A stretch of 40,168 nt of DNA from IMG/VR virus record IMGVR_UViG_3300027852_000024. One strand, written 5' to 3'. This document shows positions 357 to 39,452 of this stretch, piece by piece. This DNA comes from a virus. Positions within the stretch are counted from its first letter, which is position 1. Each line of letters opens with the position of its first letter. The position numbers and the translations under genes were made by a program. The notes beneath the pieces are model-generated. The model saw only the letters and a list, made by a program, of their open reading frames with translations, was not told the origin of the DNA and ran no database searches.

Positions 357-1214
357 TTATGTGACCTCCACAGAATTGCCCGTCTGTCGTGAATCACCAG
401 ACTGAACCGAAGTCCCTGTTTGCCACGAGTTGCCAGATTGTATTGAATTCTCTGACTGAACAGACTGACCAAACTGGTGTGAGTGACCTCTTTGTATAGA
501 GTGTCCCATCTGCTTGGAGTTTCCAGACTGTTTAGAGTGCCCAGTCTGTACTGAATTACTGTACTGAGCTGAGTAACAATATTGTTGAGAGTTTCCACAC
601 TGCTTCGACTGCCCAAACTGTGTGGAATGACCTGACTGCACAGAGTTTTCGGATTGACTTGAATCACTGTACTGAGTTGACCACCCACACTGCTTCGAGT
701 TTCCAGACTGCATTGAGTGACCTAATTGCCTTGAATCATCTGTTTGAGTTGAGTTGCCAAACTGTCGGGAGCAGTCAAGTTGCTGTGATCGGCCTGATTG
801 AGTTGAAGCTCCATACTGTGACGAACAGTCCATTTGTTTAGAGTAATCAAGCTGTTTAGACTCACCATACTGAATTGAAAAATCCATTTGTTTGGAGTTG
901 CCCATCTGTTTAGAATTTCCATACTGTGCAGAGTTGTCAAAGCTCATAGCATTGTTGCTTGATGTGGCGTTTTCATATCGTCTCGACTCGCCAAACTGTG
1001 AAGCATCATCATACAACCAGCAATCACCCTCCTGACTTAGATTGTGAGCAGTCTCAACCCATCCACCAAGATCACCCTTGCTAATGTTTGAGAAGGATTT
1101 AAGAGCTACTATCCTATGTAGTGTAACAAACTCCTTTGTTGTCGGGTGTTTTATGATCTTGGTCTCACCCGACAATGTGTACTTGTCGGTGCTATTGTTA
1201 GTATTAGTCATCAT
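357..1214 (-). CDS. Hexapeptide-repeat (beta-helix-like) protein; first gene of the leftward early operon
   Basis: AAGGAGGGG before ATG 1214. N-terminal segment ...KGDLGGWVE..NLSQEGDCWLYDDA... resembles the start of phage left-handed beta-helix repeat proteins. It is followed by about 30 consecutive S-x-Q-x-G-x hexapeptides (18-nt DNA period, about 360-940). Confidence 0.75.
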   Translation of the reverse strand: MMTNTNNSTDKYTLSGETKIIKHPTTKEFVTLHRIVALKSFSNISKGDLGGWVETAHNLSQEGDCWLYDDASQFGESRRYENATSSNNAMSFDNSAQYGNSKQMGNSKQMDFSIQYGESKQLDYSKQMDCSSQYGASTQSGRSQQLDCSRQFGNSTQTDDSRQLGHSMQSGNSKQCGWSTQYSDSSQSENSVQSGHSTQFGQSKQCGNSQQYCYSAQYSNSVQTGHSKQSGNSKQMGHSIQRGHSHQFGQSVQSENSIQSGNSWQTGTSVQSGDSRQTGNSVEVT

Positions 1215-1285
1215 TGTGCCCCTCCTTGTGTGTGTTTATGTAATAAATAACAAATAATAAATAATAAAAGTTAATGTTGAGAACA

Positions 1286-1314
1286 GATATAGCACGGTGG
1301 AATCAGTGTGTCAA
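1286..1314 (-). promoter_or_regulatory. Sigma70-type early promoter (TTGACA-17 bp-TATATC) reading leftward
   Basis: -35 at 1309-1314 and -10 at 1286-1291 on the minus strand, about 70 nt upstream of ATG 1214, flanked by AT-rich DNA. Confidence 0.6.
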
Positions 1315-1450
1315 CTATTTTATTGAAAAAAGTTTAAATAATATGCGAATAACATGCGAATAAGGTGTGATTGACACTAGTAGCAGTCCACAACACTTTG
1401 TGTTATCAAGGTGTTACGGTGTTTTACGAGGCTATAACAAAAAGTGTTAT

Positions 1451-1500
1451 TAGGTGTTTTTGGGTGTTTTTGGGTGTTTTTGGGTGTTTTTAGGTGTTTT
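1451..1500 (+). repeat. 10-bp tandem repeat T(A/G)GGTGTTTT x5 (helically phased T-tracts)
   Basis: Read directly from line 1441. Confidence 0.9.
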
Positions 1501-1507
1501 AAGGGGG

Positions 1508-1606
1508 TGATGAGGCTACAACAAAAAGTGTTATTAGGTGTTTTAAGGGGTTGATGAGGCTACAACAAAAAGTGTTATTAGGTGTTTATTAGGTGTTTTA
1601 AGGGTT
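1508..1606 (+). repeat. About 44-bp direct repeat x2 (TGATGAGGCTACAACAAAAAGTGTTATTAGGTGTTTTAAGGGG), each carrying one iteron
   Basis: Copies start at 1508 and 1552. A further repeat pair (GGGCATTTAGGAGAG.TTTACAACAC) lies at about 1610 and 1667. Confidence 0.8.
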
Positions 1607-1984
1607 TATTGGGCATTTAGGAGAGGTTTACAACACTTTTTGTTATGGGTGTTTTAAGTGTTTATCGGGCATTTAGGAGAGATTTACAACACTCTTTGTT
1701 ATTGGAGGCAAAATTGCCTACAACAAATAGTGTTGTAGATTGTGGCTGTGGGGAGCTGAGAGCTGTGTAACACTTTATGCTTGCACGGTGATTTGGATGT
1801 GCATAATTGAGCGTTGTGTGCACACGAGTTGGCTTAAGTTGTTGAAAACATTAATGTTGTTAGTGTTGTTAGTAGATAGTATATTCTTTTAACCTTCTAT
1901 AATAAATCATATACCACATTGTGACACTTTGTACTTTTTTTTTTTAGACCCCCAAATGGAATTGATTTTACTAGCAACACTCAC

Positions 1985-2109
1985 AACATGAATGATATCA
2001 AGCACTTAACTAGACACACTACTCGTCACAAATGAAAAAGGCAAGGAAATCAGCTATTTAACTCACAACATGAATGATATTAGATACTTAGAAGGAACAT
2101 GAATGATAT
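1985..2109 (+). repeat. Three copies of AACATGAATGATAT
   Basis: At 1985-1998, 2067-2080 and 2096-2109; no Shine-Dalgarno sequence precedes any of the ATGs. Confidence 0.8.
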
Positions 2110-2190
2110 CAAGGACTTAGCTGAAACACGCTCAAAACTCACTCCGACTCACTCAGCGGCTCACCTTGAAGCAGTGCGAAGCACTCACCG

Positions 2191-2304
2191 ACACACTCAG
2201 CATGTTTTGTTTACCCACCGACTCACTCAGCTTGATTTGTCTACTCGACACACTCAGCATGTTTTGTTTACTCACCAACACACTCAGCTTGATCTGTTTA
2301 CTCA
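2191..2304 (+). repeat. 57-bp tandem repeat x2 in C/A-rich non-coding DNA
   Basis: ACACACTCAGCATGTTTTGTTTAC at 2191 and 2248; CACTCAGCTTGAT at 2224 and 2281. Confidence 0.85.
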
Positions 2305-2344
2305 GCCACCACTTATGACCGGAGTGCCGACACCACGACACTCA

Positions 2345-2363
2345 GATTGCCACTGCGACAATC
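2345..2363. repeat. PAL-A dyad, degenerate copy (GATTGCCACTGCGACAATC)
   Basis: Non-coding hub; outer arms GATTG/CAATC retained. Confidence 0.6.
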
Positions 2364-2385
2364 TAACTGCCAACACCCAAACACT

Positions 2386-2505
2386 CTGGCTCCACACTGA
2401 ACACCGCCAACCACACCTAACTACCCTGGCTCCACACCGAACACCGCCAACCACACTGCTACTCTGGCTCCACACTGAATACCAAACCACACTGCTACTA
2501 CACAC
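2386..2505 (+). repeat. 38-40-bp tandem repeat x3 (CTGGCTCCACAC.GAA(C/T)ACC...CCACAC)
   Basis: CTGGC at 2386, 2426 and 2464; G-poor stretch. Confidence 0.8.
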
Positions 2506-2582
2506 AGCCTCACCAACACCACCACGTCCACGCTGAGCCACTCAAATGATGTAGCCATGTGTCGGTGAGGGTCAGGATACTC

Positions 2583-2627
2583 GGATTGCCACTGAGCATT
2601 GTGGCAATCCATAACACTTGGTGTTGT
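2583..2627. repeat. Composite module: PAL-A variant (GGATTGCCAC-N8-GTGGCAATCC, 2583-2610) directly abutting an iteron (2611-2627)
   Basis: 10-bp perfect arms; iteron ATAACACTTGGTGTTGT starts at the next base. Confidence 0.85.
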
Positions 2628-2639
2628 AGACAAGGGTGT

Positions 2640-2676
2640 GATTGCCACTGTGACAATCCACAACACTTAATGTTAT
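2640..2676. repeat. Composite module: PAL-A variant (GATTGCCACTGTGACAATC, 2640-2658) plus iteron (2660-2676)
   Basis: Same arrangement as 2583-2627. Confidence 0.8.
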
Positions 2677-2826
2677 TAGACAACCCTAACATTACTCATC
2701 ACCTCTAAGTTGGTTAGAGGTGGTGAATATTATTAGAAAGGCCGGTGGGGGGTAAGAGGGGGCTACCCCCAAAACAGATGAGGCATAATTGAGTATACGT
2801 ACCTACGCAGGCATTCCGTAAAATTT

Positions 2827-2960
2827 CAGCTTTTCTATTTTTCAGCTTTTCTATTTTTCAGCTTTTCTATTTTTCGGCCACATAAAATTTCAGCTTTTAT
2901 ATTTTTCAGCTTTTTATATTTTTCAGCTTTTTCTATTTTTCAGCTTTTCTATTTTTCAGC
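2827..2960 (+). repeat. 16-17-bp tandem array CAGCTTTT(T)CTATTTTT, 3 units (2827-2874) plus 5 units (2891-2960)
   Basis: CAGC recurs at 2827, 2843 and 2859 (degenerate at 2875), then at 2891, 2907, 2924, 2941 and 2957. Confidence 0.9.
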
Positions 2961-2963
2961 AGC

Positions 2964-2983
2964 ACTGCCACCAGTGGCTATCC
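2964..2983. repeat. PAL-A dyad, degenerate copy (ACTGCCACCAGTGGCTATCC)
   Basis: Core GCCACCAGTGGC intact. The right flank reads CTATCCACA, an 8/9 match to the DnaA-box consensus TTATCCACA. Confidence 0.6.
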
Positions 2984-2998
2984 ACAAGTATCCCCTTC

Positions 2999-3035
2999 AT
3001 AACACTTTCTGTTGTGGATTGTCACAGTGGCAATC
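2999..3035. repeat. Composite module in mirrored order: iteron (2999-3015) plus PAL-A variant (GATTGTCACAGTGGCAATC, 3017-3035)
   Basis: Inverted relative to the modules at 2583 and 2640. Confidence 0.8.
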
Positions 3036-3255
3036 TAACTGTTCAGAGTTAGCAATCCCATCCTATTATATAAGCTCACAAGGTGGCGCACAAAACAAGC
3101 CCAGCGGTCAAGCCAGATAGACACACACGGGAGATCCAAAAAATCTCATACCATAGTACACCTTATATATTAAGACTGTCCAGCGGCCCTGTGACAATCA
3201 CCTGCAAGAATCATGCCAAGCCATACCGAAGCAATAAATAAAGATATGCAAAGGC

Positions 3256-3284
3256 TTGACAACACTACCACAATGTGGTATACT
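3256..3284 (+). promoter_or_regulatory. Consensus sigma70-type promoter TTGACA-17 bp-TATACT with TGn extended -10 and palindromic spacer CCACAATGTGG
   Basis: -35 at 3256-3261, -10 at 3279-3284; drives the terminase genes. Confidence 0.75.
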
Positions 3285-3306
3285 GTATTTAATAGATCAA
3301 GACCAG

Positions 3307-3326
3307 GATTGCCACTGGTGGCAGTC
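3307..3326. repeat. PAL-A dyad (GATTGCCACTGGTGGCAGTC) in the 5' leader between promoter 3256-3284 and ATG 3349
   Basis: Read directly. Confidence 0.9.
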
Positions 3327-3348
3327 AAAGAAAAGAGGGGAGACGATA

Positions 3349-3831
3349 ATGGACTTTGATTTTTTAACAGAGCAGATTGATGAAGAAACACAGCCAAAGT
3401 ATGTTGGCCCAAATATGAAGTCAGCGGTTAAGATGACACCACGTAAGTTTGCATCGTCAGTACTTGAGGTGTTTGACAAACTTGGTGGAGTGTCTTGGCT
3501 ATTGATAGAAGCACAAGCAGACCCTAAAGCGTTTCTTGCGTTGCTGTCTAAGATGATACCAAAGAGCGTGCAACTTGATGATCTAGCAGGTATAGCTGTA
3601 ACAGTAGTCGACCAATTTGGTAGACAAGTTAAAGCAGAAGCGGTAAACGCAAATAACCAAACACAAATTGCTGCCACAATACCTTCTGAAGGCACGGAGT
3701 CCGGTCAACTCCAGATTGCCACTGGTGGCAGCCAGACTCCCCGGGCGGTTCTCTCCTCCTCACCTGGGGAGTCACCCCCAACTGATGTTGATATAACAGA
3801 CATATTTAAGAAGGGGGTTGATGATGAATAA
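3349..3831 (+). CDS. Candidate small terminase subunit (160 aa)
   Basis: GAGGGGAG RBS before ATG 3349; lies immediately upstream of and overlaps the large terminase; assigned by position only. Confidence 0.45.
   Translation: MDFDFLTEQIDEETQPKYVGPNMKSAVKMTPRKFASSVLEVFDKLGGVSWLLIEAQADPKAFLALLSKMIPKSVQLDDLAGIAVTVVDQFGRQVKAEAVNANNQTQIAATIPSEGTESGQLQIATGGSQTPRAVLSSSPGESPPTDVDITDIFKKGVDDE
3714..3733. repeat. PAL-A dyad inside a CDS (GATTGCCACTGGTGGCAGCC, encodes IATGG)
   Basis: Read directly. Confidence 0.9.
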
Positions 3832-5236
3832 TGACTACTTAGAAGAAGCTGCTAAGGGTAGGATAACAATACCATACAATTTCCATCCTCGTGAGTATCA
3901 GAAGGATGTGTACAACGCACTGCCACTCGGGTTTAAACGCGGTGTAGTGATATGGCATAGACGAGCAGGCAAGGACAAGACATTCATAAACATACTTGCG
4001 CGTGAAGCCTTTAAGAAAAGAGGTACTTACTTCTATATACTACCTTATTATAAGCAAGCACGATTGATTATATGGGAAGGTATGGACTCGTCGGGCTTTA
4101 GATTCATTGATCATTTTCCAGATAAGCTTGTTAAGCGTAGAGAGAACCAACAGATGGTCTTAGAGCTAACAAATGGGTCTGTTATAAGAATGGTTGGGTC
4201 TGATAATATTGATTCGATTGTTGGGACAAACCCAATAGGCGTAATATTTTCCGAGTTCTCACTGCACAAGTCAGCAGCGTGGAACTATTTACGGCCTATC
4301 TTACTCGAAAATGGTGGGTGGGCGCTGTTCAACGGTACTCCACGTGGGAAGAACCCATTGTGGAAAATGTACCAACATGCTAAGAAGGATAAAACATGGT
4401 TCAGTGAGATATTGACAATTAATGACACCACAAAAGAGGACAACACACCAGTTATAACAGAAGAAGACATACAAGTTGAGCTTCAATCAGGGATGCCAAA
4501 AGAACTGATCCAACAAGAGTACTATTGTTCCTTTGATGCTGGTCTTGTTGGGTCTATAGTGGGTGATCTGATGGCCAATGCGAGGGAAGAGGGGCGTATC
4601 GCAAGGATACCTTGGGAGCCTGAGTTAAGAGTAACAACTGCGTGGGATTTGGGATTTGATGACACCAACACTATTTGGTTCGCGCAGTTCTCTGGCAAAG
4701 AAGTATGGCTGATAGACTGCTATAGCAACAACAGGAAGCCAGCACCACACTATGTTAACGTACTTAACCAGAAACCGTACACATATGAGGAACACTTCTT
4801 CCCACATGATGTGGAGGTGCATGAGTACAGCACTGGGCTTACAAGGAGGGAGACGTTTGAGAACTTAGGGCTAAAGAATATAATAACAATTCCGCGAACC
4901 GGGGTCGCTGATAAAGGCCAGTTGTCAGAAGGACACAACGCTATGAGGCAGACTATACCAAAGTGCTTCTTTGATAAAGTAAAGTGTGATGATGGCATTG
5001 AGGCATTAAAATCGTACAGGCGGGAGTGGGAGGAGAAGAAGGAGAAGTTCTCTGACTCACCTGTTCGTGATTGGAGTAAGCATTTTGCTGATGCGTTTAG
5101 ACAACTTGCATGTGGTCTTGGGATAAGGCGGACAGGTAATATGCCTATAAGTCAGTATGCGTCGCAGAGTTACAATGAGCTTGATGGACTCGAAGACGAT
5201 AATCTTAACTACGATCCATTTGAGGACTACTTGTAA
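3821..5236 (+). CDS. terL: Terminase large subunit
   Basis: Walker A-like HRRAGKDKT, Walker B-like GVIFSEF, nuclease-domain-like AWDLGFDDTNTIWF; AAGGGGG RBS; the track start at 3818 is TTG and the first ATG is 3821. Confidence 0.85.
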   Translation: MMNNDYLEEAAKGRITIPYNFHPREYQKDVYNALPLGFKRGVVIWHRRAGKDKTFINILAREAFKKRGTYFYILPYYKQARLIIWEGMDSSGFRFIDHFPDKLVKRRENQQMVLELTNGSVIRMVGSDNIDSIVGTNPIGVIFSEFSLHKSAAWNYLRPILLENGGWALFNGTPRGKNPLWKMYQHAKKDKTWFSEILTINDTTKEDNTPVITEEDIQVELQSGMPKELIQQEYYCSFDAGLVGSIVGDLMANAREEGRIARIPWEPELRVTTAWDLGFDDTNTIWFAQFSGKEVWLIDCYSNNRKPAPHYVNVLNQKPYTYEEHFFPHDVEVHEYSTGLTRRETFENLGLKNIITIPRTGVADKGQLSEGHNAMRQTIPKCFFDKVKCDDGIEALKSYRREWEEKKEKFSDSPVRDWSKHFADAFRQLACGLGIRRTGNMPISQYASQSYNELDGLEDDNLNYDPFEDYL

Positions 5237-5254: not shown

Positions 5255-5283
5255 TTGACAAGTATACCACATTGTGGTATACT
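5255..5283 (+). promoter_or_regulatory. Second consensus promoter TTGACA-17 bp-TATACT with spacer palindrome CCACATTGTGG
   Basis: -35 at 5255-5260, -10 at 5278-5283; nearly identical to 3256-3284. Confidence 0.75.
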
Positions 5284-5329: not shown

Positions 5330-5539
5330 ATGAGTGGAGTTTTTGATTTTATATCGAACAAAGGGGATGGTGATGAGATTGCCACTGGTGGCGATCAGAC
5401 AGACCCTGGGGCCATCACGGAAGAAATGAAAGAAGAGGCAAAGAAACTTGCTGCGTCTTCAAAAGGTCTTGACATAGCTGAGTTCCAAAAGAAGCATAAA
5501 ATACACATACTCAATGTTGACGAACTCTTAAAGGGATAA
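5330..5539 (+). CDS. Small acidic hypothetical protein (69 aa)
   Basis: AAGGGAGG RBS; lies between terL and the portal gene. Confidence 0.6.
   Translation: MSGVFDFISNKGDGDEIATGGDQTDPGAITEEMKEEAKKLAASSKGLDIAEFQKKHKIHILNVDELLKG
5377..5396. repeat. PAL-A dyad inside a CDS (GATTGCCACTGGTGGCGATC, encodes IATGG)
   Basis: Read directly. Confidence 0.9.
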
Positions 5540-5541
5540 AT

Positions 5542-7200
5542 ATGAGAGCTACACAAACTGACATAGAGACTCATATAACGCAGAAACAATCGTTAGTTGT
5601 GTCAAGAGGGATGTTTGATTCTCACTGGCAGGAAATTGGCGAGCTTATATATCCAGAACACGCTAACTTTACCTTTACCCCAGCACCTGGGGAGAAGAGG
5701 CTGTCTAAAGTATTTGACTCTGTTCCGACACATGCTAATCAGTTATTAGCTTCCGGCCTGTTCTCGTTGCTAACAAGTTCAGCAAGCCCTTGGTTCCATC
5801 TTAGACCAGTTAACCTGATGATGGCGAAGTCTCGTGAAGTGAATGTGTATCTCGATGAAGTGTCGTCCATAATGTATCATGAGATAAACAATCCTGTAGC
5901 TGGGTTTTCTTCTGCTATACACGAGGGTTACTTAGAATATGGTGCGTTTGGTAATATGACTATACTACTCGAAGAAAACTTAGAGCAGTCTTCTTTACGT
6001 TTTATGTCTTTACCATTGTATGAGTGTCATTTTATCGAAAACGCCCAGGGCGTAATCGATACTCTATACAGAACTTATGATAGGTCTGTAGGATTCTTGA
6101 TGCGTAAATTTGGCGTTGAAAACTTATCCGAAGCAGCTAAAAAGTTTATAGAAGAGGACAAACTTGACACAATAATAAAAGGATTGCACGTCATCCTTCC
6201 AAGGGACTTAATCGATCATTACTCTATCAAGTCAACTGATTTGCCTTTTGCATCTATGTACATAGATATCACCAATACACACTTGATGCATGAAGGTGGA
6301 TTCCATGAGTTGCCTTTTATGGCAGCAAGATTCTATAAATCGACTAATGAGGTGTACGGTCGTGGCCCAGGATCGACAGCTTTACCAGATACAAAGATGC
6401 TTATGCGAGTTGTTCAGGTGACTATAAGGGCAGCACAAAAGACAGTTGATCCACCAATGATACTACCAGATAGTGGGTTTTTACGCCCGTTACGTACTGT
6501 GCCTGGTGGGCTGAACTACTACCAGCGTGGGAGACTGAACTCGAAAAAAGATATCGACATCATCCCTACTGGAAACCCTGGATTTGGTGTTGACTATTCT
6601 AAATTATTGCACGAAAAGATACGAGAGATATTTTTTGTAAATCAGCTACAACTTGATACCGGCCCGCAAATGACAGCAACAGAAGTAATGCAGAGAACAG
6701 AAGAGAAGTTACGCTTGCTTGGCCCACTTCTTGGGCGTGTGCAGACTGAGTTGCTTGGCCCACTTATTAGAAGGGCGTACGGTCTACTAATGAGAGCAGG
6801 TAAGCTGCCTGAACCACCAGCAGTATTAGGAGACGCAAAGTTAAAAATAACATATACGTCCCCAATAGCAAGAGCGCAAGAGCAAGTTGAGGCTAATGGG
6901 CTAATGAGGGCGCTCGGTATACTCGAACCAATGCTCAAGTACAGCCCAGAAACAGCAGATATATTTGACACTGATGCTATGGGTCGTGGAGTTTTTAACA
7001 TGTATAGCATAAGCCAAAAGTATCTTAAAGACGAGAAGCAGGTTAAGGCTATTCGTAGCTCACGAGCTAAAGCGGAACAAGACCGGCAAGAAGCAGAGAA
7101 TCTAAGAGCGACTGGACAGGGTGCCGATTCCATGGCGAGAGCAGGAGCAACAGTGCAAGAAGCTGGACTCGGCTCTGGTGATTTTGGGCCACTACAATAA
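5542..7200 (+). CDS. Portal (head-tail connector) protein
   Basis: 552 aa, follows terL and precedes scaffold and capsid; size and synteny as in T7 gp8-type portals. Confidence 0.75.
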   Translation: MRATQTDIETHITQKQSLVVSRGMFDSHWQEIGELIYPEHANFTFTPAPGEKRLSKVFDSVPTHANQLLASGLFSLLTSSASPWFHLRPVNLMMAKSREVNVYLDEVSSIMYHEINNPVAGFSSAIHEGYLEYGAFGNMTILLEENLEQSSLRFMSLPLYECHFIENAQGVIDTLYRTYDRSVGFLMRKFGVENLSEAAKKFIEEDKLDTIIKGLHVILPRDLIDHYSIKSTDLPFASMYIDITNTHLMHEGGFHELPFMAARFYKSTNEVYGRGPGSTALPDTKMLMRVVQVTIRAAQKTVDPPMILPDSGFLRPLRTVPGGLNYYQRGRLNSKKDIDIIPTGNPGFGVDYSKLLHEKIREIFFVNQLQLDTGPQMTATEVMQRTEEKLRLLGPLLGRVQTELLGPLIRRAYGLLMRAGKLPEPPAVLGDAKLKITYTSPIARAQEQVEANGLMRALGILEPMLKYSPETADIFDTDAMGRGVFNMYSISQKYLKDEKQVKAIRSSRAKAEQDRQEAENLRATGQGADSMARAGATVQEAGLGSGDFGPLQ

Positions 7201-7210
7201 CATAAAAGGA

Positions 7211-7230
7211 GACTGCCACTGGTGGCAATC
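7211..7230. repeat. PAL-A dyad (GACTGCCACTGGTGGCAATC) lying between AAGGAG (7206-7211) and ATG 7231
   Basis: Read directly. Confidence 0.9.
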
Positions 7231-7482
7231 ATGATTAATAACTTGCTTAATAAAAAAATACACAGAGCGTACCAAGATGTTTTCGACGCTGGTGCGCCAC
7301 AAGTAAAATTAGTACTCAGCGATCTATGCAAAGCACATGGGGTATTCGACGGAGGCTTTGATCCTAACCCACATATTAATGCTTTCAACAGCGGTGAGAG
7401 AAATGTAATACTAAGGATATTGACCATATTAAAAATGAAACCAGCTGATATTATAAATTTAGCAGATAATGGAGGAGTATAA
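7231..7482 (+). CDS. Hypothetical virion-module protein (83 aa; alternative GTG start at 7222)
   Basis: ORF between portal and scaffold; stop overlaps the next start (TAATG). Confidence 0.55.
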   Translation: MINNLLNKKIHRAYQDVFDAGAPQVKLVLSDLCKAHGVFDGGFDPNPHINAFNSGERNVILRILTILKMKPADIINLADNGGV

Positions 7483-8360: not shown

Positions 8361-8481
8361 TCACAGCAGACAAGCATAAAGCCCTGCACACAATAGCATT
8401 TGGGCCTCCTTAGCATAGGAGACAACCCGTTGGTTAATGGGAAGAATCTTATAAACAAACACAACAATGAAGGAGGCTGAA

Positions 8482-9351
8482 ATGTCAGCTGAAATAACGA
8501 CCGCAATGGTCGAACAGTACAAGAGCAATGTGGCATTATTGTCGCAGCAAAAGGGATCGAGATTGCGTGGTGCTGTCCGTACTGAAAGTATTGATGGTGA
8601 GAATGTATACTTCGAGCAGATAGGCGCTACATCTGCACAGAAGAAAACCTCAAGGCATATGGATACACCACAGATAGACACTCCGCACCACCGCCGTAAA
8701 GTATCCGCCGACGATTATGTATGGGCGGATTTCGTAGACAAAGAGGATTTAATCCGCACTATCATTGATCCGACAAGCCCGTATGCAGTCAATGCTGTTA
8801 ACGCTTTCGGCCGATCAATTGATGACGTGATAATTGCAGCGGCAAGTGGAACAGCTTACACAGGGAAAACTGGTGGTACAGCAGTAACTCTGGGTACTGG
8901 ACAGCAAATTGCTGAGGGTAATGTCGGCATGACTGTAGAAAAACTTGTTGAGGCGAAAGGTATATTCTGGAGCAACGATATAGACGAGGATATCCCGCTA
9001 CATATAGTTATGTCATCTCAGCAGTATCAGGATTTGCTAAACATAACTGAGGTCACAAGCGCAGATTACAACTCAATTAAGGCTCTTGTCAAAGGCGAGA
9101 TCAATGAGTTCATGGGGTTCACCTTCCACCGTACGCAGAGGCTTTCTGTTGACGCGAGTGATATTCGTACATGTTTTGCATGGGCGCAGGATGGCATACT
9201 TCTTGGACTTGGTGCCGATATACACACAAAAATATCTGAGAGAGACGACAAGAATTATCTCACACAGGTATGGTGCGGAATGACTATTGGCGCAACACGT
9301 ATGGAAGAGAAGAAAGTTGTCGAAATATTCTGTGACGAAACCCCTGATTAA
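8482..9351 (+). CDS. Major capsid protein
   Basis: AAGGAGG at 8470-8476 favours ATG 8482 over 8467; 289 aa; synteny. Confidence 0.7.
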   Translation: MSAEITTAMVEQYKSNVALLSQQKGSRLRGAVRTESIDGENVYFEQIGATSAQKKTSRHMDTPQIDTPHHRRKVSADDYVWADFVDKEDLIRTIIDPTSPYAVNAVNAFGRSIDDVIIAAASGTAYTGKTGGTAVTLGTGQQIAEGNVGMTVEKLVEAKGIFWSNDIDEDIPLHIVMSSQQYQDLLNITEVTSADYNSIKALVKGEINEFMGFTFHRTQRLSVDASDIRTCFAWAQDGILLGLGADIHTKISERDDKNYLTQVWCGMTIGATRMEEKKVVEIFCDETPD

Positions 9352-9360
9352 TAAACCTGT

Positions 9361-9380
9361 GATTGCCACCAGTGGCAATC
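9361..9380. repeat. PAL-A dyad (GATTGCCACCAGTGGCAATC), perfect arms
   Basis: Between stop 9351 and AAGGAG/ATG 9406. Confidence 0.95.
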
Positions 9381-10545: not shown

Positions 10546-10565
10546 GATTGCCACTGGTGGCAATC
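10546..10565. repeat. PAL-A dyad (GATTGCCACTGGTGGCAATC), perfect arms
   Basis: Starts right after stop 10545 and is followed at once by AGGAGG and ATG 10576. Confidence 0.95.
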
Positions 10566-13251: not shown

Positions 13252-13709
13252 TAACTTACAAGCAGGAAGGGTATACCGATGTGCTTGGCGAAATGAAGAA
13301 CCTATTCAAGTCACAATGGGAAGAGGTTGGGCTAAACGCTCTGAGCGACCGCAACAGGGTACTTGACCCTAATTGGTCGATGTATGAGGCTCTGGACGGC
13401 GCCGGTAATTTACACGTGTACACCGCCAGGATTGCCACCAGTGGCAATCTCGTAGGCCACTGCATGTCCGTTGTGTACCCGCACCCGCACAGCAAGAATG
13501 TAATAGCTGCCGAAAATGACTTCCTGTACTTATCACCGAAGTATAGAACAGGATTCACGGGGGTTGGGCTTATAAATTTTGCTGTAGAAGAATTGAAAAA
13601 AGTAGCTGAGATAATCTTTTTTAACACGCATGTGCATAATTCATTTTTCCCTATACTACATAAGTTGGGGTTTAAACTTATAGAGCATAGGGCTATGCTG
13701 GAGGTTTAA
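13248..13709 (+). CDS. GNAT-family N-acetyltransferase-like protein
   Basis: ATGA overlap with the upstream gene; LSPKYRTGFTGVGLINFAVEELKK resembles GNAT motif A (R-x-x-G-x-G). Confidence 0.55.
   Translation: MITYKQEGYTDVLGEMKNLFKSQWEEVGLNALSDRNRVLDPNWSMYEALDGAGNLHVYTARIATSGNLVGHCMSVVYPHPHSKNVIAAENDFLYLSPKYRTGFTGVGLINFAVEELKKVAEIIFFNTHVHNSFFPILHKLGFKLIEHRAMLEV
13430..13449. repeat. PAL-A dyad inside a CDS (GATTGCCACCAGTGGCAATC, encodes IATSGN)
   Basis: Perfect arms. Confidence 0.95.
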
Positions 13710-14357: not shown

Positions 14358-14377
14358 GATTGCCACTGGTGGCAATC
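14358..14377. repeat. PAL-A dyad (GATTGCCACTGGTGGCAATC), perfect arms
   Basis: Between stop 14341 and GGGGAG/ATG 14394. Confidence 0.95.
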
Positions 14378-14393: not shown

Positions 14394-16226
14394 ATGCCAA
14401 GAATACCACAATTACCGACATCAAAGGAATCCCATATAGGTGATTTTAAGATATCAACACCACGAGCAGCAAATATAAACGCACCAAGTGGACGACCAGC
14501 ACGTAACGCAGGAGGCGTAGGTGGTAGAGTGATTGGTGGTGCTGTCAAAGAACTGAGCGCAGTATTGAGAAAGATGTCACAGGAGTACTCTAAGAAAGAA
14601 GAGTTAACACGTATAGCGAATTCTCAGAAGTTACAATTCGAAATGAATGAGAAATTTAGGATTCGTAAAAAAGAAGAAGCAGAGAAAGTTGGGAGCCAAG
14701 CACTTGGGTTAGTAGAGAAGTTTAAACAAGATACAGAGGATTTAAGAGAAGGTTACATACCAGAAGACTTAGACCAAAGAACTTCTAACGAACTCAACCA
14801 GCATTTTAACTCGCAGTACAATTCACATGCTTCTTGGCTGGTAAACCACTCAATAAGACAGAGTTCTGTTGCTGACAGTGAGGCCCGGATACGTGCGATA
14901 CAAGACGCACATACCAATATAACTTCTATGGGTGTTGGCGACAGAGTTGGAATAGAGCGTGAGGTAATGAACACGCTTAAATTTGAGAAAGCTAGACACC
15001 CTGGCATAACAGAAGACCAGATGGAGACTAATGGCAGGTCGTTAAGAGAGGACTACTTAACTTTTGCGTTAACGAAGTGGGCCGCTGATAGTACTATTGG
15101 AGCATCTAATTTCTGGGAGAAGAACCAAGAGTATATAAAAAGCGCATTACCAAAAAACTATAATGTTATGGCAAAAAAGATGGAGATAGTTGAAGACGAT
15201 TCTACGTATGATATTGCGCTCGGAACTCTTGAGAGAATGTTTGGTGAAGACGATGCCGCAGCAGCTAAATTTGTAGACGAGGACACAGATGGCTTGCTAA
15301 AGTTGACCCCATCGCAACGATTAAAAATGTCGTCAACACTGTGGGCTAACAACAACCATAAGTTGGCGGAAGAAGAGCGCATAAAAAATAAGAAAGAAGA
15401 AGAGTATCTTATCAATAGCCATAATCGTTTCTTTGATCCCGAAACACGTACTCTTAACACCCCCGCAGCTTTGTCAGATCTTGAGCAGACATACAGATCA
15501 GGCGGAGTTGATTCCGCCATGTACGAGAGCAGACGTAAACAGTTGCTGACTGGTGGCGAGTTCAGCAACAGCCAAGCGCAAGATTTAATAAGAGATATTA
15601 ACAGCGTTGCGGTCACCACTAAAGGTGAAGTGCTGAATCGTATAGCAGGTACGAGCGCAAACCCCGCGCCGTTCTTCAGCGAGTTAAAGAAACGGCAAGA
15701 CCAGATATCCAGAGGTTTCACTTCTAACTGGTTTGATGTAGCGTATGACAAGTTCAACGCACTTGCGAGTATAAAGAAGAAGAAAGACTTACCATCAGAT
15801 GTGAAAGAAAAAGAATTACTTGTTAGCACAACAGAGCTACCAGCATTTAAAAAGCGTTTGGAAGAAGTTGCACGATGGGCTGGTTTGTCAGCTGGCGATC
15901 CAGAGATTGTTAACCTTGCTAACACCTTACTTGAGAGCGGCTGGTATTCTGACAAGCACCCATCATGGCACTCAGGCGGAGCCGCATGGAATGTATTTGG
16001 AGAGAAGTACCAGAGATTATGGGAGTTCCCTGAAGGTGAAGTTATGGAAGTATTACAGTCTCGTGGTCTTGAGACTGCCACTGGTGGCAGTCCCACTCTT
16101 TTCCAAAAGTACACTCCAGAAGAAGAAGAAGCTGTGGCAAGACTACATACTATGAATATACCAATCGACAGCACCAGTATAAAAAGAGCGCTCGAGATTA
16201 TAAAAATAGAAAAAGGTGGTGAATAA
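14394..16226 (+). CDS. Internal virion / ejection protein B-like (610 aa)
   Basis: Synteny; stop overlaps the next start. Confidence 0.45.
   Translation: MPRIPQLPTSKESHIGDFKISTPRAANINAPSGRPARNAGGVGGRVIGGAVKELSAVLRKMSQEYSKKEELTRIANSQKLQFEMNEKFRIRKKEEAEKVGSQALGLVEKFKQDTEDLREGYIPEDLDQRTSNELNQHFNSQYNSHASWLVNHSIRQSSVADSEARIRAIQDAHTNITSMGVGDRVGIEREVMNTLKFEKARHPGITEDQMETNGRSLREDYLTFALTKWAADSTIGASNFWEKNQEYIKSALPKNYNVMAKKMEIVEDDSTYDIALGTLERMFGEDDAAAAKFVDEDTDGLLKLTPSQRLKMSSTLWANNNHKLAEEERIKNKKEEEYLINSHNRFFDPETRTLNTPAALSDLEQTYRSGGVDSAMYESRRKQLLTGGEFSNSQAQDLIRDINSVAVTTKGEVLNRIAGTSANPAPFFSELKKRQDQISRGFTSNWFDVAYDKFNALASIKKKKDLPSDVKEKELLVSTTELPAFKKRLEEVARWAGLSAGDPEIVNLANTLLESGWYSDKHPSWHSGGAAWNVFGEKYQRLWEFPEGEVMEVLQSRGLETATGGSPTLFQKYTPEEEEAVARLHTMNIPIDSTSIKRALEIIKIEKGGE
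16073..16092. repeat. PAL-A dyad inside a CDS (GACTGCCACTGGTGGCAGTC, encodes TATGG), with both arms changed in a compensating way
   Basis: Read directly. Confidence 0.9.
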
Positions 16227-19200
16227 TGGCCACACAGAATTTGATATCGATGCTAAAAAAGCACGAGGGTTACAGGGCTAATATCTACAAAGACACACGA
16301 GGGTTTGATACTGTTGGGTATGGGCATAAAGTGACCTCACCAGAAGAGTACAGCAAAGGTGTTTCAGAAGCAGAAGCCGAAGCAATGCTTGTGCAAGACG
16401 CTGACAGAGCCAGGGCAGACGCAGAGAGAGTGTTCCCGAACTTGTCGAGCTACCCCTCTGAAAAACAAGATGCTTTTGTCAACATGACGTTTAACCTTGG
16501 CGCAAGCGGAGTTCTTGGATTCAAGAATATGCACACTGAACTACAAAAAGGCGACAAAACAGATTGGGATGTAGTCGGGCAACATATGTACGACAGCAAA
16601 TGGAGAGAACAAGTTGGCGACAGAAGCACTGAACTTATAGATATTATAAAGAAAAAAGAAGAAGCCGAAGCGGAGGTTAAAGAAGAAGCTGATTCTTTTG
16701 AAAAAATGAAGAAAGATTACGGTGTCGGTGACTCCTTCGAGAGAATGCAAGCTGAATACAAAACTCAGCAGATCATAGCGGAGGACCAAGGAATAGACGA
16801 GGACTACTTACTACCCGTAACAGCGGCTATAAGTGCATCGTCAGCTTTTTTGTTTGGGCTGCCAGCGGGGTTGGTAGCTGGTGGAGCGTCCCTGATAACA
16901 GAAGCAGGTAGCGCTATCTTGGGTAAGTTCGCAAAAAAGGTCGACCCTGCATTGGAGTTCCCTGTGTACTTTGCGTCACAGGTTGTTAGTGCTTTTTCTT
17001 TTGAGAACTGGCTGATTAATAACACTGTCAAAAAACTCGCAACTGCTGCTCCTAAATTCTGGACAAAAGAGTTCGCAGTAGCAGAAAGGAATGGGTGGCT
17101 GTCAAAAGAGTTTATCAGCGACACATCCGATATAGTCCGCAACATGGACATGGGGACAAAAGGCGCGAATAAAAAACTATTAAACCTGTACAAACAACAA
17201 GCGTACGACTACAGACTTGGAAAAGTAGGTAAGAGGTTGGAGAAATTAGAGAAAGTACCTTCAAAAGTAGCCGAAGCGAAGGACGTTATAACCCAACTCA
17301 GCAAGAAGAAAACTTTGCTTGATTCTGATTACCGTAGGTTAGCACGTATTGCTAAAGAGGATGCGTATATAGAGTATATGCCTAAGTTCAACAAGTTTAA
17401 AAACAATGCCGTAAATAAAGCAGCTAACGAGAAGTGGCAAGCATTACCAACACGAGACTTAGTGGAAGCCTTGAGAGCAGATGGTGGTATTCCTAAGAAC
17501 TACAAATTCGTTTCACCAGAGGTGGCAGAAGCTTTTGCAAAACGACATCCTGATTTGCTGAGTAAGACAGACAAAGCAGCACAACTTGAGAGTATAGCCA
17601 GAGGCTTTGACTACGAAAGCGTTGATGATGTTGTGCTTAGTGTGTTCAACACTCCAAACAAAAAACAGTTGCGTAGGATCGCATCTGCGGAATTGAAATC
17701 AGATTTTGATAAGGTGTTTATAAATGAAATATCTTCACGTGTAGCAGCTAAAGAAGCAGACTACCTGTATGAGTTGCACGGTAAAACAAAAGGATGGAAA
17801 GCTGGCCGGATATCTAAACAAAAACATATTGAGGCAACACGTAGATCAGAGGGGAAACTACCAGCAAAACTTGTTGCGATGGAAGTTAAGGCTGGTAAGA
17901 GAGCAACGTCTAAGTTGTTGGAAATACTGCAGAAGACAACAAAAAAAGATATTACACATCTACAGAGGGCGCACGCACAAAAGTTGGCTGAGTTCCAAGC
18001 CGCTGTTAGAGTAGAGAGAAAACTAAAAGTTATAAATAGAAGGCTACAAAGAAGCATTGGTATAGACGGCGAGTATGGCGCTCAACTTGACAAGTTGTTA
18101 GCCCCATTGTACAACAAGGCAGCAGGTAGACCAGCAGAGCATATGTGGAAGTTCTTGACTCGAAAGTACTATGATGAGGTGTCAATAGGAGCCGATATAC
18201 TAATCAAAAGATACAACGACTTGTTACAGACTTTACCTTTTACTGGTCGTACTTTTTTAGACCTTACTTACAACCAAGCTAAAGACCTTGACAACTTTGT
18301 CCGTGCTTTCAAATTTGTCGCCGAGAATGACAGATGGATAACCAGAATAGGTGAGAAGTATCGTTTAAAGCATCTTGTTTCCGAGATATACAACACCGCC
18401 AAGACAACTATTCCAAAGGCTAAGTTACTACAACCACGTGTTACAGGTTCACAGCTTGAGGAGTTATCAAGAGGCAGCCTTGGTAAGCTTGCTAATGCAA
18501 GAGAGTCTCTTGCTGATGTGGCTGGTGGGGCGCTTGCGTCATTAAAAAGGATTGAACCAATTTGTATACAGTTGGATGGTTTTAAAAATTTTGGCCCAGC
18601 ATGGAAAAATATATTCAACAGAACAGTGCAAGCGGAGACAGCAAAAGAAGCTTTGGGTTCTAAAGTATTTGGTAAATACGAAGAAATATTTGCAGCACAT
18701 AAAGCAGCTACCGGACTGAAACCTTCTAAATACTGGACTGCCACCAGTGGCAATCTTAATGGGTTAGCAATAAACAAAGAAACTGCTGTTCTGATGGCGC
18801 TAAATTCTAAGCACCCTAATAATATGGAAGCTATGCTAAGTGGGCTGAGGGTGTCTAAAGAAGCTATGATAAATTTTCTCGACGGAGCGATGTCAACTGC
18901 TGACAAAAAACTTGTTAACGATGTACTCGACACACTCGACGAATTGTACCCACTACTCGCTGAGATATACAAAAAGAAAACTGGTCTTGTACTACCACGG
19001 CCAGAAGGGGGTAGGTACTTCCCAATACTTAGGGACAGCAACTTCTCCAATATAAGCGAGAGTATTGATGATGTGTTCCTCGATACTGGTTCTGATTTAT
19101 TCTACACAGAGGTTAAGAAGACTTTTATGAAAGCCAGAGTAGGTGGAGTAAAAGCAGTGAAACTTGACTTTAGAGGACTGACGCAACACCTGGCGGATAT

Positions 19201-20395: not shown

Positions 20396-20415
20396 GATTG
20401 CCACTGGTGGCAATC
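20396..20415. repeat. PAL-A dyad (GATTGCCACTGGTGGCAATC), perfect arms
   Basis: Between stop 20392 and AGGAG/ATG 20432. Confidence 0.95.
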
Positions 20416-22716: not shown

Positions 22717-22736
22717 GATTGCCACTGGTGGCAGTC
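22717..22736. repeat. PAL-A dyad (GATTGCCACTGGTGGCAGTC)
   Basis: Between stop 22711 and GGGGGA/ATG 22751. Confidence 0.9.
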
Positions 22737-25756: not shown

Positions 25757-25792
25757 AAAAAGCAGACTGCCACCAGTGGCAGTCTGCTTTTT
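25757..25792. terminator. Bidirectional intrinsic terminator built on an extended PAL-A dyad (AGCAGACTGCCACCAGTGGCAGTCTGCT)
   Basis: 12-bp arms, A5 upstream and T5 downstream; sits exactly where the converging arms meet (stops at 25746 and 25794). Confidence 0.85.
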
Positions 25793-29396: not shown

Positions 29397-29520
29397 TGTC
29401 GCCTCTATTTTCTATTATTTGGATTGCCACTGGGGCTGTCCGAGAGTAAACTGTGAGTATTTTTCTGCACCGATTGCATTGATACACTGATTTAATCTTA
29501 GTCTTCAACACCCGAATCAT
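29383..29520 (-). CDS. Possible small ORF (45 aa, MIRVLKTKIKSVYQCNRCRK...) overlapping the primase start
   Basis: GGAGG 4 nt before ATG 29520; below the ORF-track size cut-off; translated by hand. Confidence 0.35.
29421..29441. repeat. PAL-A dyad, degenerate copy (GGATTGCCACTGGGGCTGTCC)
   Basis: Upstream of AGAGG/ATG 29396. Confidence 0.65.
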
Positions 29521-32049: not shown

Positions 32050-32069
32050 GATTGCCACTGGTGACAATC
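32050..32069. repeat. PAL-A dyad (GATTGCCACTGGTGACAATC)
   Basis: Between the polymerase stop (32081) and the RBS/ATG 32034 on the minus arm. Confidence 0.9.
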
Positions 32070-34623: not shown

Positions 34624-34655
34624 AGCAGACTGCCACCAGTGGCAGTCTGCTTTTT
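34624..34655. terminator. Extended PAL-A hairpin identical to the one at 25761-25788; its T5 tract lies on the plus (antisense) side only
   Basis: AGCAGACTGCCACCAGTGGCAGTCTGCT followed by TTTTT. In the sense (minus) direction it is followed by CTTATATT and then the RBS of the next gene. Confidence 0.6.
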
Positions 34656-37204: not shown

Positions 37205-37230
37205 CCGGATTGCCACTTATAGCAATCCGG
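37205..37230. repeat. PAL-A dyad variant (CCGGATTGC-CACTTATA-GCAATCCGG)
   Basis: 9-bp outer arms kept, centre replaced; between the ParB-like stop (37249) and the RBS/ATG 37171. Confidence 0.7.
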
Positions 37231-38484: not shown

Positions 38485-38506
38485 AATGTTCTATAAATAG
38501 AACATT
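38485..38506. promoter_or_regulatory. PAL-B palindrome AATGTTCTATAAATAGAACATT, preceded by direct half-site repeats CTATAATGTT x2 (38471-38490)
   Basis: Perfect 10-bp arms; lies in the 150-nt gap upstream of the ParB-like gene. Confidence 0.8.
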
Positions 38507-38644: not shown

Positions 38645-38666
38645 AATGTTCTATTTACAGAACATT
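38645..38666. promoter_or_regulatory. PAL-B palindrome variant AATGTTCTATTTACAGAACATT
   Basis: One arm mismatch; immediately upstream of GGGGAG/ATG 38634. Confidence 0.7.
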
Positions 38667-39428: not shown

Positions 39429-39452
39429 GAATGTTCTATTTATAGAACATTC
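39429..39452. promoter_or_regulatory. PAL-B palindrome GAATGTTCTATTTATAGAACATTC (11-bp perfect arms)
   Basis: Centred about 35 bp upstream of the -35 box of promoter 39378-39406. Confidence 0.8.

Follow-up and report, generated by a model that had tools for sequence, protein, structure and literature searches.

Genome and control region

The window analysed here, a stretch of virus DNA of 40,168 nucleotides (nt; IMG/VR record IMGVR_UViG_3300027852_000024), is the complete genome, ~40 kb, of a podophage, and our subject is a set of composite sites in its control region, in which a palindrome (the dyad) is fused to a 17-bp repeat (the iteron). Because the first 127 nt (1-127) are identical to the last 127 nt (40042-40168), the assembly is circular and the genome measures 40,041 bp; the gene gB spans the assembly junction. 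The structural operon on the plus strand encodes a TerS-like protein (3349-3831), TerL (3818-5236), the portal (5542-7200), the capsid (8467-9351) and a 1388-residue protein containing a lysozyme domain. The replication genes, on the minus strand, encode a ligase, a P4-family primase-helicase, an SNF2 helicase, DNA polymerase A, an Enc34-type single-stranded DNA-binding protein, an exonuclease and a ParB-like protein. The operons diverge, replication leftward and structural genes rightward, from a 2.1-kb non-coding control region (1215-3348).

Read from left to right, the control region holds an AT-rich stretch (1235-1345), a dyad and an array of seven iterons, followed by a 26-nt inverted repeat around a T run, CA-rich repeats, a 1-bp-spacer dyad with TAACTG at 2345, and two direct composites. 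Next come a hairpin with 23-bp arms (2686-2736), a GGGG..CATACCCCCAAAA element, a tandem array, a 2-bp-spacer dyad and a mirrored composite. The right end is made up of an 8-bp-spacer dyad, a leftward sigma-54 promoter, a rightward sigma-70 promoter, a further dyad and TerS. The AT-rich stretch and the iteron arrays coincide with the divergence point of the operons and with the minimum of the cumulative GC skew. The element at 2745-2778, GGGG..(G)GCATACCCCCAAAA (also written GGGG..CCCCCAAAA), precedes the tandem array in all relatives. The array itself (2815-2960) consists of nine copies of a 16-17-bp unit (TTTTCTATTTTTCAGC); every relative has an array at the equivalent place, built from a unit of its own, for instance of 35 bp in L001 and of 10 bp in L009.

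No close relative of the control region exists among 50,697 GenBank phages (megablast, no matches), no Rfam family matched at 1100-3500, and no tRNAs were found. Relatives, denoted by L numbers, were gathered as contigs through the TerL protein, the exact palindrome, its CTAC variant and, in metagenomes, the TerS protein, as well as through homologues of the ParB-like protein and the contigs encoding them. MW202510, the closest annotated relative by TerL (45% identity), does not carry the dispersed palindrome and is uninformative in this respect.

A palindrome and an iteron joined at one base

The dyad has the form GAYTGCCAC-YR-GTGGCARTC (20 bp with a 2-bp spacer), and a search allowing any spacer finds ~24 copies genome-wide. 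Its 19-mer pattern matches 8 times against 0.03 expected, and its half-site GATTGCCAC, at no more than one mismatch, 48 times against 8.0 expected. Outside the control region, 11-12 of 17 copies fall within the 4.4% of sequence that is non-coding. These dispersed dyads typically lie between a stop codon and the next ribosome-binding site, in both arms of the genome. Half-sites are solitary or spaced by 1, 2, 8 or ~21 bp, and the dyads with spacers of 1 bp (2345, 2640, 3017) or 8 bp (2584; a degenerate one at 3176) are almost confined to the control region. The 17-bp iteron, AYAACACTTTNTGTTRT, is nearly palindromic and confined to the control region. Ten copies with up to one mismatch all lie within 1390-3015; at up to three mismatches there are 21 matches against 2.6 expected.

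The dyad is nearly unchanged in all gathered relatives, L077, L081 and L083 included, although their TerL proteins are only 54-81% identical. At least 15 contigs with a TerL of only 70-80% identity carry it almost without variation. Across relatives 18 of its 20 positions are more than 90% conserved, and the flanks are not. A search of 596 Gb of bacterial genomes yields the exact 20-mer 17 times, each time as a lone, scattered copy without neighbouring phage genes, and no genome among 185,579 species holds more than one chance copy. Being conserved among relatives, rare in bacteria and missing from the distant TerL relative, the dyad is thus specific to this phage clade and under strong sequence-specific selection. 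The single, scattered bacterial copies, free of neighbouring phage genes, led us to reject an origin from a host repeat or prophage. REP-type repeats spread by a RAYT were likewise rejected, given that no Y1/HUH transposase was found in the phage proteins scanned and that the bacterial copies are single chance occurrences. An earlier note, made from the letters of this DNA, had suggested an initiator plus an accessory factor as an example of what reads the composites; the dyad is not an origin element, and a palindrome that is genome-wide and clade-wide is not solely a local accessory site.

Within the control region the two motifs are fused. The modules GGATTGCCAC-N8-GTGGCAATCC plus ATAACACTTGGTGTTGT, GATTGCCACTGTGACAATC-C-ACAACACTTAATGTTAT and ATAACACTTTCTGTTGT-G-GATTGTCACAGTGGCAATC, together with CTATCCACA at 2978-2986, all stand where the earlier note had located them (Table 1). 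Two of its details needed amending. The half-site GCAGTCC that it reported before the iteron at 1390 is present, but is really the end of a full, if degenerate, dyad (1369-1388). Its mirrored third module is a mirror image in that the arms 2640-2676 and 2999-3035 are 89% complementary over 37 nt, but the iteron at 2999 is not flipped; as both dyad and iteron are near-palindromes, its orientation was judged from the internal AACACTTT asymmetry. Two further composites, dyad-C-iteron at 1369-1406 and iteron-A-degenerate dyad at 1720-1756, mean that the seven-iteron array is bracketed by composites.

This spacing is far from random. Four iterons lie exactly one base from a dyad, a number reached in none of 200,000 random placements of the ten iterons within the region; three such junctions arose in a fraction of 7e-5. 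Strict criteria yield 64 iteron-like 17-mers from the control regions of 11 lineages; the nearest half-site within 40 nt is exactly 1 nt away from 12 of them, and the other distances are scattered. The composites also occupy syntenic positions. One is the gene-proximal border of the array (1369-1406 in the window), shared with L071 (at 3201), L073 (at 2281) and L083. A second is the pair formed by an 8-bp-spacer dyad-C-iteron and a 1-bp-spacer dyad-C-iteron (2583-2627 and 2640-2676), the former of which recurs in L070, L071, L073 and L083. The third, iteron-G-dyad with a 1-bp spacer and TAACTG, lies upstream of TerS (2999-3041) in 11 lineages, and a fourth follows the sigma-70 promoter in some relatives. 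In L083 all junction types are kept despite an unrelated iteron, ATAAAAGAATCTTTTAT. The earlier note had argued that the fixed juxtaposition means two elements read together, and had pointed to spacing in relatives as the comparison to make. Relatives do keep the motifs fused with an invariant 1-nt junction, and there is no independent assorting of the two even where, as in L083, the iteron has changed wholly. Its suggestion of an initiator acting with an accessory factor remains viable on this evidence.

The dyads within composites form a distinct subtype, with a spacer of 1 or 8 bp in place of the usual 2 bp. They are also polar: the half distal to the iteron is canonical, and the proximal half keeps only its outer GATTG, with the spacer one base shorter. 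The polarity of the dyad at 2640-2658 is repeated in L005, L063, L066, L001 and L074. This polarity and the altered spacer suggest that the site is adapted to its neighbour, which we read as assisted and cooperative binding of two proteins.

A second part of the earlier note remarked that the junction loosely resembles a DnaA box. On that view the modules would be origin elements at which host DnaA, bound to the AATCCACAA junction, acts jointly with a phage initiator bound to the iteron. The setting would suit an origin, with iteron arrays beside the AT-rich stretch at the divergence point and skew minimum, and CTATCCACA at 2978-2986 does match a DnaA box at 8 of 9 positions; it arises from the dyad at 2963-2982 followed by CACAAG. 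Yet 9-mers resembling TTATCCACA show no enrichment, with 17 occurrences where 12.1 are expected, and the control region contains only two of them. The AATCCACAA junction is a by-product of CAATC + C + ACAAC and is not conserved: it becomes AATCCTTAAC, AATCCGTAAC or AATCATTAAC in relatives, and relatives that keep the composite carry CAATCCTTAAC, CAATCCGTAAC or CAATCATTAAC in its place. A role for DnaA at these junctions therefore strikes us as extremely improbable.

The main rival to a DNA site is a hairpin. Here the dyads would be stem-loops in polycistronic mRNAs or in single-stranded replication intermediates, read by a hairpin-specific protein and serving in processing, 3' stabilisation, attenuation or priming; long leader RNAs started at the sigma-54 and sigma-70 promoters would contain the composites as structured segments. 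We retain this reading, unlikely as we think it, because of three properties that tell against a duplex site. Placement between stop codon and ribosome-binding site is what one expects of an RNA element; the canonical dyad, as RNA, can form a hairpin of -11.2 kcal/mol; and spacings of 1, 2, 8 and ~21 bp do not keep the halves on one helix face, so that a rigid dimer would not tolerate them, whereas as loops they are natural, any loop size being acceptable. The copy with the 8-nt loop (2583-2610) reaches -18.9 kcal/mol, the copies at 25765 and 34628 are cores of longer stems with A/T runs, like bidirectional terminators, and the concerted C-to-T and G-to-A change seen in L076 (below) preserves pairing.

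The pattern of variation speaks for DNA instead. When the dyads in the structural arm of 13 relatives are read on the transcribed strand, position 3 and its partner are T..A 25 times, C..A 12 times, T..G 6 times and C..G 4 times. Since 3.6 C..G combinations are expected under independence, the two halves vary independently; changes at positions 3 and 4 are not compensated, and C..A mismatches outnumber both U.G and C-G pairs, so that covariation is absent. A structural stem would not usually have all nine of its positions fixed, as they are here. The centre is a YR step, mostly the non-self-complementary CA/TG, and a 2-nt loop is impossible unless one pair opens. A U tract, as an intrinsic terminator would have, accompanies only 2 of the ~24 copies. 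Some copies lie upstream of the promoter (L008, L009, L070) or across the predicted sigma-54 start, and the region has no Rfam match. RNase III-type sites were rejected for a stem that is too short (8-9 bp). We accordingly favour a protein reading the dyad on duplex DNA over a constraint on pairing.

Candidate proteins for the two motifs

The best candidate for a reader of the dyad is the phage's own orphan ParB/Noc/KorB-fold protein. Its structural model (pLDDT 89, built with 44 homologues) has as best Foldseek matches Noc-DNA (7ol9, 7nfu), ParB-parS, ParB-CTPgammaS, KorB and KorB-KorA-DNA. The matches cover the N-terminal and helix-turn-helix (HTH) domains, over 260-298 columns at a probability of 1.0 for Noc-DNA, ParB-parS and KorB-DNA. 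The protein carries a nucleotide-binding box, GHHRLQA (pattern GxxRxxA), and the HTH pattern SR...L..L with the motif GASIIAQFLGDTWSRQTIQDALQVL. Its 79 homologues are all encoded on phage-like contigs, many of ~40 kb, and most have a precomputed PF02195 assignment; tblastn found none in the 50,697 GenBank phages. No ParA-like partner was found among the window proteins scanned or the called genes of relatives. Phages commonly encode orphan ParB-fold proteins, most of which have no assigned target or role (PMC12704722).

Two patterns connect this protein with the dyad. Among phages with the CCAC-type palindrome it is 61-78% identical and the most conserved protein of the replication arm; TerS is 35-56% identical in these phages. 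In the lineage with a CTAC palindrome its conservation drops into the lower half. There, in L076 and L079, the ParB-like protein is 36-37% identical and every copy of the palindrome reads GAYTGCTAC-NN-GTAGCARTC; the putative recognition helix, SRQTIQDAL, has become SRQAIDFAI in the CTAC-type homologues, and a homologue at 47% identity retains both the helix motif and the CCAC palindrome. The concerted change of all copies implies a trans-acting reader, for which the ParB-like protein is the most likely candidate. Neither 16-base palindrome core was found in the searchable literature.

The iteron, unlike the dyad, is specific to each lineage: it reads ATAACACTAAGTGTTAT in L070 (12-13 copies with a 26-bp period), TTAACAATTTTTGTTAA in L009 and ATAAAACAATGTTTTAT in L006, besides the version in L083 given above. 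Resemblances to CtrA, LexA, NrdR and NifA sites were dropped as their spacings do not fit. The seven-iteron array (1390-1736; 12-13 iterons in L070) lies beside the AT-rich stretch and, in relatives, next to gB, and is a probable origin. The evidence points to the 301-residue gB protein as the most likely candidate for the iteron binder. Its homologue is the first leftward gene beside the control region in every lineage with its own iterons, and the second in the window. It combines a conserved helical N-terminal domain bearing an HTH-like motif, a variable acidic linker and a conserved C-terminal domain. Only lineages whose iterons are of the AACAC..GTGTT type retain the N-domain motif ERSEYRKL..KSGNPTYLVN; another gB subtype, together with an ATAAAA..TTTTAT iteron, is common to L006 and L083. 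The family is small and restricted to the clade, with nine homologues in a word search and 26 representatives among 1.84 billion proteins; its distant members contain no informative Pfam domain. The P4-family primase-helicase is an alternative candidate for reading the iteron.

The gB protein starts with a (DN)n run encoded by ATCATTGTC repeats (240-327), and its linker has a (DEL)n run; the low-complexity sequence of the linker differs from lineage to lineage, with SP repeats in L070 and DT repeats in L083. The first leftward gene of the window, gA (357-1214, minus strand), combines a YdcK-like N-terminus with ~18 copies of an 11-residue repeat rich in Q, S and G. This protein, absent from all relatives examined, was rejected as a reader.

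Taken with the architecture of the sites, these candidates suggest an explanation to which we give somewhat less than even credence: the composites would be conserved double sites at which the ParB-like protein and gB bind side by side, organising the origin and promoter region. The ParB/KorB-like protein would bind the dispersed palindromes, and the iteron protein, for which gB is the candidate, would bind the arrays at the probable origin and a small number of single sites close to promoters. Where the sites are fused, the two proteins would touch and bind cooperatively, and the iteron-bound protein might position, load or lock the ParB-like protein at the array borders and beside the sigma-54 and sigma-70 promoters. 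The analysis shows the anatomy of the sites, their statistics and conservation, the altered palindrome of a distant lineage and the fold of the ParB-like protein; we infer the partners and their cooperativity, as we do the process controlled, which may be replication initiation, the switch from early to late transcription, or both.

Several observations weigh against this explanation. The gB protein matches no Pfam, NCBIfam or PHROG family, its model has a pLDDT of 63 and a fold search returned no match; moreover, overall divergence confounds the way it co-varies with the iteron. For the ParB-like protein, the Pfam ParB_N match (E 4.5e-4) and a weak HTH_ParB match are below curated cut-offs, and its link to the dyad is correlative, consisting of the fold, the conservation pattern and a single specificity switch that represents one lineage. 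The distance from the dyad to the sigma-70 promoter varies among relatives. Finally, TerS stays a possible reader of the dyad, as that of the CTAC lineage was not recoverable from its 34-kb contig, which is without the TerS-TerL-control region segment.

This last point touches on packaging. The repeat cluster upstream of and inside the TerS-like gene might be a pac or cos site at which the small terminase reads the dyad, the iteron or both, with the oppositely oriented composites at 2640-2676 and 2999-3035 flanking the genome ends. At least ten half-sites within ~400 bp upstream of TerS, and a conserved copy inside the gene, would fit such a site, as would the tandem array and GGGG..CATACCCCCAAAA element that lie between the oppositely oriented composites in all relatives. 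Several metagenomic contigs also break near this element; those of L002 and L008 end within ~30 nt of it, and the element may for this reason be near a genome end. However, dyads occur at gene boundaries throughout the genome, unlike known pac and cos sites, which are confined to one locus. TerS has diverged to 35-56% identity among phages whose dyad is identical, and the arrays of 7-13 iterons lie 1.5-2 kb from TerS, beside early genes. The assembly is circular, with a 127-bp overlap and hence without defined physical ends, and the contig end of L082 is an AGGC repeat artefact. We regard packaging as quite unlikely to account for the cluster.

The closest parallel to a pair of adjoining sites for a ParB-family protein and a partner is plasmid RK2, in which dispersed palindromic OB sites are the loading points of KorB; it then slides as a CTP clamp, and operator-bound KorA latches it at promoters (PMC11790492). 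As in RK2, a ParB-family protein is found with a dispersed palindromic operator and an adjoining palindromic site for a second protein, here predicted; the two proteins act jointly at promoters, here again by prediction; the replicon has an iteron-type origin, here a candidate; and the modelled ParB-like protein matches the KorB and KorB-KorA-DNA structures. Unlike RK2, this is a phage and not a plasmid, and no ParA/IncC partner was found. Its palindrome is 20 bp with a 2-bp centre, and most of the ~24 copies lie in gaps separating cistrons, not at promoters. In at least 11 lineages the partner site is joined to the dyad through a single nucleotide, with the geometry of the dyad altered there, and the candidate gB is unrelated to KorA.

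Other systems share single features. Noc, the best structural match, is also an orphan ParB-type protein without ParA and has many dispersed palindromic sites (NBS), but it acts on the bacterial chromosome in division-site control, and its sites have no known fused partners and are not confined to gene boundaries. The linear plasmid-prophage N15 has four dispersed SopB centromere sites and a SopA partner, with a reported effect on phage gene expression. Palindromic sites for a ParB-type protein, here predicted, are likewise scattered over a phage genome, but ~24 are present in the window, with no ParA and no sign of lysogeny functions. Like iteron origins with a dimeric initiator (the lambda origin and its O protein, plasmid Rep-iteron origins, P4 alpha with ori and crr), the control regions of the window and its relatives have arrays, here of 7-13 near-palindromic repeats, beside an AT-rich stretch and a variable early gene. 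The layout of gB, with its N-terminal domain, acidic linker and C-terminal domain, resembles that of lambda O, and a smaller second iteron cluster 1-1.5 kb away recalls P4 crr, the primase-helicase here being of the P4 family. Unlike in these origins, gB has no homology to O, Rep or alpha, there is no cluster of DnaA boxes, and the 26-bp array period of L070 is unusual. In cluster A mycobacteriophages, stoperators are present as tens of copies of a conserved site in short intergenic gaps, one of them at the main promoter (PMC9283540, PMC6550527), a distribution similar to that of the dyad. However, a stoperator is an asymmetric site of 13 bp that follows the direction of transcription and is the target of a temperate phage's monomeric immunity repressor (PMC9283540, PMC6550527). 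The dyad is palindromic, no repressor or integrase was found among the proteins scanned, and the dyads do not qualify as stoperators.

A bolder version of the side-by-side reading, possible but to our mind rather doubtful, is that of a clade-wide ParB/KorB-type clamp with about two dozen loading palindromes at gene boundaries and a few specialised composites, at which a lambda-O-like, lineage-specific iteron protein would capture it at the origin and at the back-to-back sigma-54 and sigma-70 promoters. If true, this clamp would link replication with the early-late switch and perhaps also with genome compaction, and it would give an orphan phage ParB and its cis-acting sites an assigned function for the first time. 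Confirmation of the side-by-side reading would account for the striking conservation of a repeat spread over the genome, and would carry the KorB-KorA principle, in which a site-specific partner captures a sliding clamp, beyond plasmids to phages of virulent appearance. The clade offers an orphan phage ParB, its probable 20-bp site, a natural specificity variant (CCAC versus CTAC) and a fused partner site, described here as co-evolving with a second protein.

Promoters, further repeats and feature coordinates

Two predicted promoters stand back to back at the right end of the control region (Table 1). The leftward one is the only exact match in the window to the sigma-54 pattern TGGCAC-N5-TTGCW, with the invariant GG and GC at fixed spacing. 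It is syntenic in at least 14 relatives, among them L002, L005, L006, L008, L009, L036, L052, L063, L066, L074, L077 and L081, in the form TGGCAY-N5-TTGCA(TA), of which only the 5-nt spacer varies. An 8-bp-spacer dyad follows 3-25 nt downstream, and in the window and L008 it overlaps the predicted start. A conserved predicted sigma-54 promoter is an unusual feature for a phage. Second copies occur in L005 (rightward at 6634, 8 nt after its composite) and L081 (at 8555, minus strand).

This promoter raises the case for a host factor, in that a sigma-54 enhancer-binding protein or another host regulator might read the dyad and tie phage expression to the state of the host. The conserved promoter beside dyads and the failure to find an activator ATPase for sigma-54 among the phage proteins scanned would agree with it; the CTAC variant could reflect a different host; and the inner part of the dyad, TGCCAC-N2-GTGGCA, presumably bears a loose resemblance to NtrC-type sites. 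However, a host regulator would be titrated out by as many as ~24 high-affinity sites, none of the genomes from 185,579 bacterial species has more than a single chance copy, and the site changes together with the phage's own ParB-like protein. We hold a host reader to be very unlikely, and the ParB-like protein remains our preferred candidate.

The near-consensus sigma-70 promoter of the structural operon has a palindromic spacer, ACCACAWTGTGGT, in common with another at 5255-5283, between TerL and portal; a related sequence lies at 1896-1923 on the minus strand. A candidate early sigma-70 promoter, TTGACA-17-TATATC, was read by eye at ~1287-1315 on the minus strand; the promoter scan required T at the last position of the second hexamer and hence did not list it. 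The weak leftward sigma-70 sites that the scan did return lie at 1283-1254 and 1927-1899.

Table 1. Coordinates of the motifs, promoters and candidate reader genes in the window
Feature	Position	Strand	Remarks
gB (301 aa)	39462-40041 (3' part), 1-327 (5' part)	-	Crosses assembly junction; candidate iteron reader
Orphan ParB/Noc/KorB-fold protein (367 aa)	37249-38352	-	Candidate reader of dyad
Dyad, degenerate, 2-bp spacer, GATTGACAC-TA-GTAGCAGTC	1369-1388		Gene-proximal edge of iteron array
Iteron 1, ACAACACTTTGTGTTAT	1390-1406	+	Joined to dyad 1369-1388 via single C
Iteron 2	1434-1450	-	
Iteron 3	1518-1534	-	
Iteron 4	1562-1578	-	
Iteron 5	1630-1646	+	
Iteron 6	1686-1702	+	
Iteron 7, last of array	1720-1736	-	Followed by one base (A), then GATTG... 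remnant
Dyad, degenerate, 1-bp spacer, GATTGTGGCTGTGGGGAGC	1738-1756		Distal edge of iteron array; complementary to 2334-2365
Dyad, 1-bp spacer, GATTGCCACTGCGACAATC, then TAACTG	2345-2369		Unit also in L070, L071
Dyad, 8-bp spacer, GGATTGCCAC-N8-GTGGCAATCC	2583-2610		Dyad of composite module 1
Iteron of composite module 1, ATAACACTTGGTGTTGT	2611-2627	+	
Dyad, 1-bp spacer, GATTGCCACTGTGACAATC	2640-2658		Composite module 2; distal half GATTGCCAC canonical, iteron-proximal half variant GTGACAATC
Iteron of composite module 2, ACAACACTTAATGTTAT	2660-2676	+	
Dyad, 2-bp spacer, CACTGCCAC-CA-GTGGCTATC, then CACAAG	2963-2982		Junction motif only (2963-2986), no iteron
Iteron of mirrored composite module 3, ATAACACTTTCTGTTGT	2999-3015	+	
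Dyad, 1-bp spacer, GATTGTCACAGTGGCAATC (3017-3035), then TAACTG	3017-3041		Iteron-proximal half degenerate, distal half canonical
Isolated half-site, TTAGCAATC	3049-3057		After small inverted repeat TAACTG..CAGTTA; kept in L005, L009, L063
Dyad, degenerate, 8-bp spacer, GACTGTCCA-N8-GTGACAATC	3176-3199		Overlaps predicted sigma-54 transcript start
Predicted sigma-54-type promoter, TGGCATGATTCTTGCA	3203-3218	-	Leftward, into repeat region
Predicted sigma-70 promoter of structural operon, TTGACA-17-TATACT	3256-3284	+	Extended -10; 11/12 positions; kept in relatives
Dyad, canonical	3307-3326		Just downstream of sigma-70 promoter, upstream of TerS; on either promoter side in relatives
Dyad in 3' part of TerS-like gene	3714-3733		Encodes IATGGS; position kept in relatives
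Dyad, dispersed, canonical	5377-5396		
Dyad, dispersed, after portal gene	7211-7230		Right half overlaps start of Bbp19-like gene
Dyad, dispersed, canonical	9361-9380		After capsid gene
Dyad, dispersed, canonical	10546-10565		Intergenic
Dyad, dispersed, canonical	13430-13449		Within open reading frame (ORF)
Dyad, dispersed, canonical	14358-14377		Intergenic
Dyad, dispersed	16073-16092		Within ORF
Dyad, dispersed	18736-18755		Within ORF
Dyad, dispersed, canonical	20396-20415		Intergenic
Dyad, dispersed	22717-22736		Intergenic
Dyad, core of longer stem with T/A runs	25765-25784		Between convergent arms; -25.5 kcal/mol
Dyad, dispersed, variant GATAGCCAC..GTGGCTATC	27724-27743		Within primase-helicase gene
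Dyad, degenerate, 1-bp spacer	29422-29440		
Dyad, dispersed	32050-32069		Intergenic, replication arm
Dyad, core of longer stem with T/A runs	34628-34647		
Dyad	37208-37227		Directly downstream of ParB-like gene

Two of the tabulated dyads deserve comment. The one at 2963-2982 has an equivalent after the tandem-repeat array in L001, L002, L005, L009, L066 and L081. The one after the portal gene (7211-7233) doubles as a translation-initiation region: AAGGAG precedes it, and several relatives have no possible start codon for the Bbp19-like gene other than the GTG in its right half, GTGGCAATC.

Further repeats fill the middle of the control region. The 26-nt inverted repeat (CATTAATGTTGTTAGTGTTGTTAGTA; 1848-1874 and 1968-1995), which is kept in relatives, flanks ~95 bp with an 11-T run. 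Strand composition flips there, the plus strand being GT-rich on the leftward side and CA-rich on the rightward side, and this flip runs opposite to the skew of the flanking genes. Additional families of direct repeats lie at 1979-2119 and 2130-2520, comprising three copies of a 30-nt unit (ACTCACAACATGAATGATATCAAGCACTTA) and CA-rich units of 57 and 40 nt. An ORF of 145 codons at 2099-2536, created by these direct repeats, is probably not a gene.

A third family of palindromes, TGTTCTAT-WW-ATAGAACA, is represented three times where 0.02 copies would be expected (38487-38504, 38647-38664 and 39432-39449), all in the early leftward operon and at least two of them in intergenic gaps. By sequence and position they look like operators. 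In L006 an 18-bp palindrome, CTTATTACATGTAATAAG, lies beside two leftward TTGACA promoters (4975-5000 and 6525-6545) and looks like a further, lineage-specific operator. In L081 an HNH/NUMOD4 homing-endonuclease gene is inserted in the replication arm (19596-20093).

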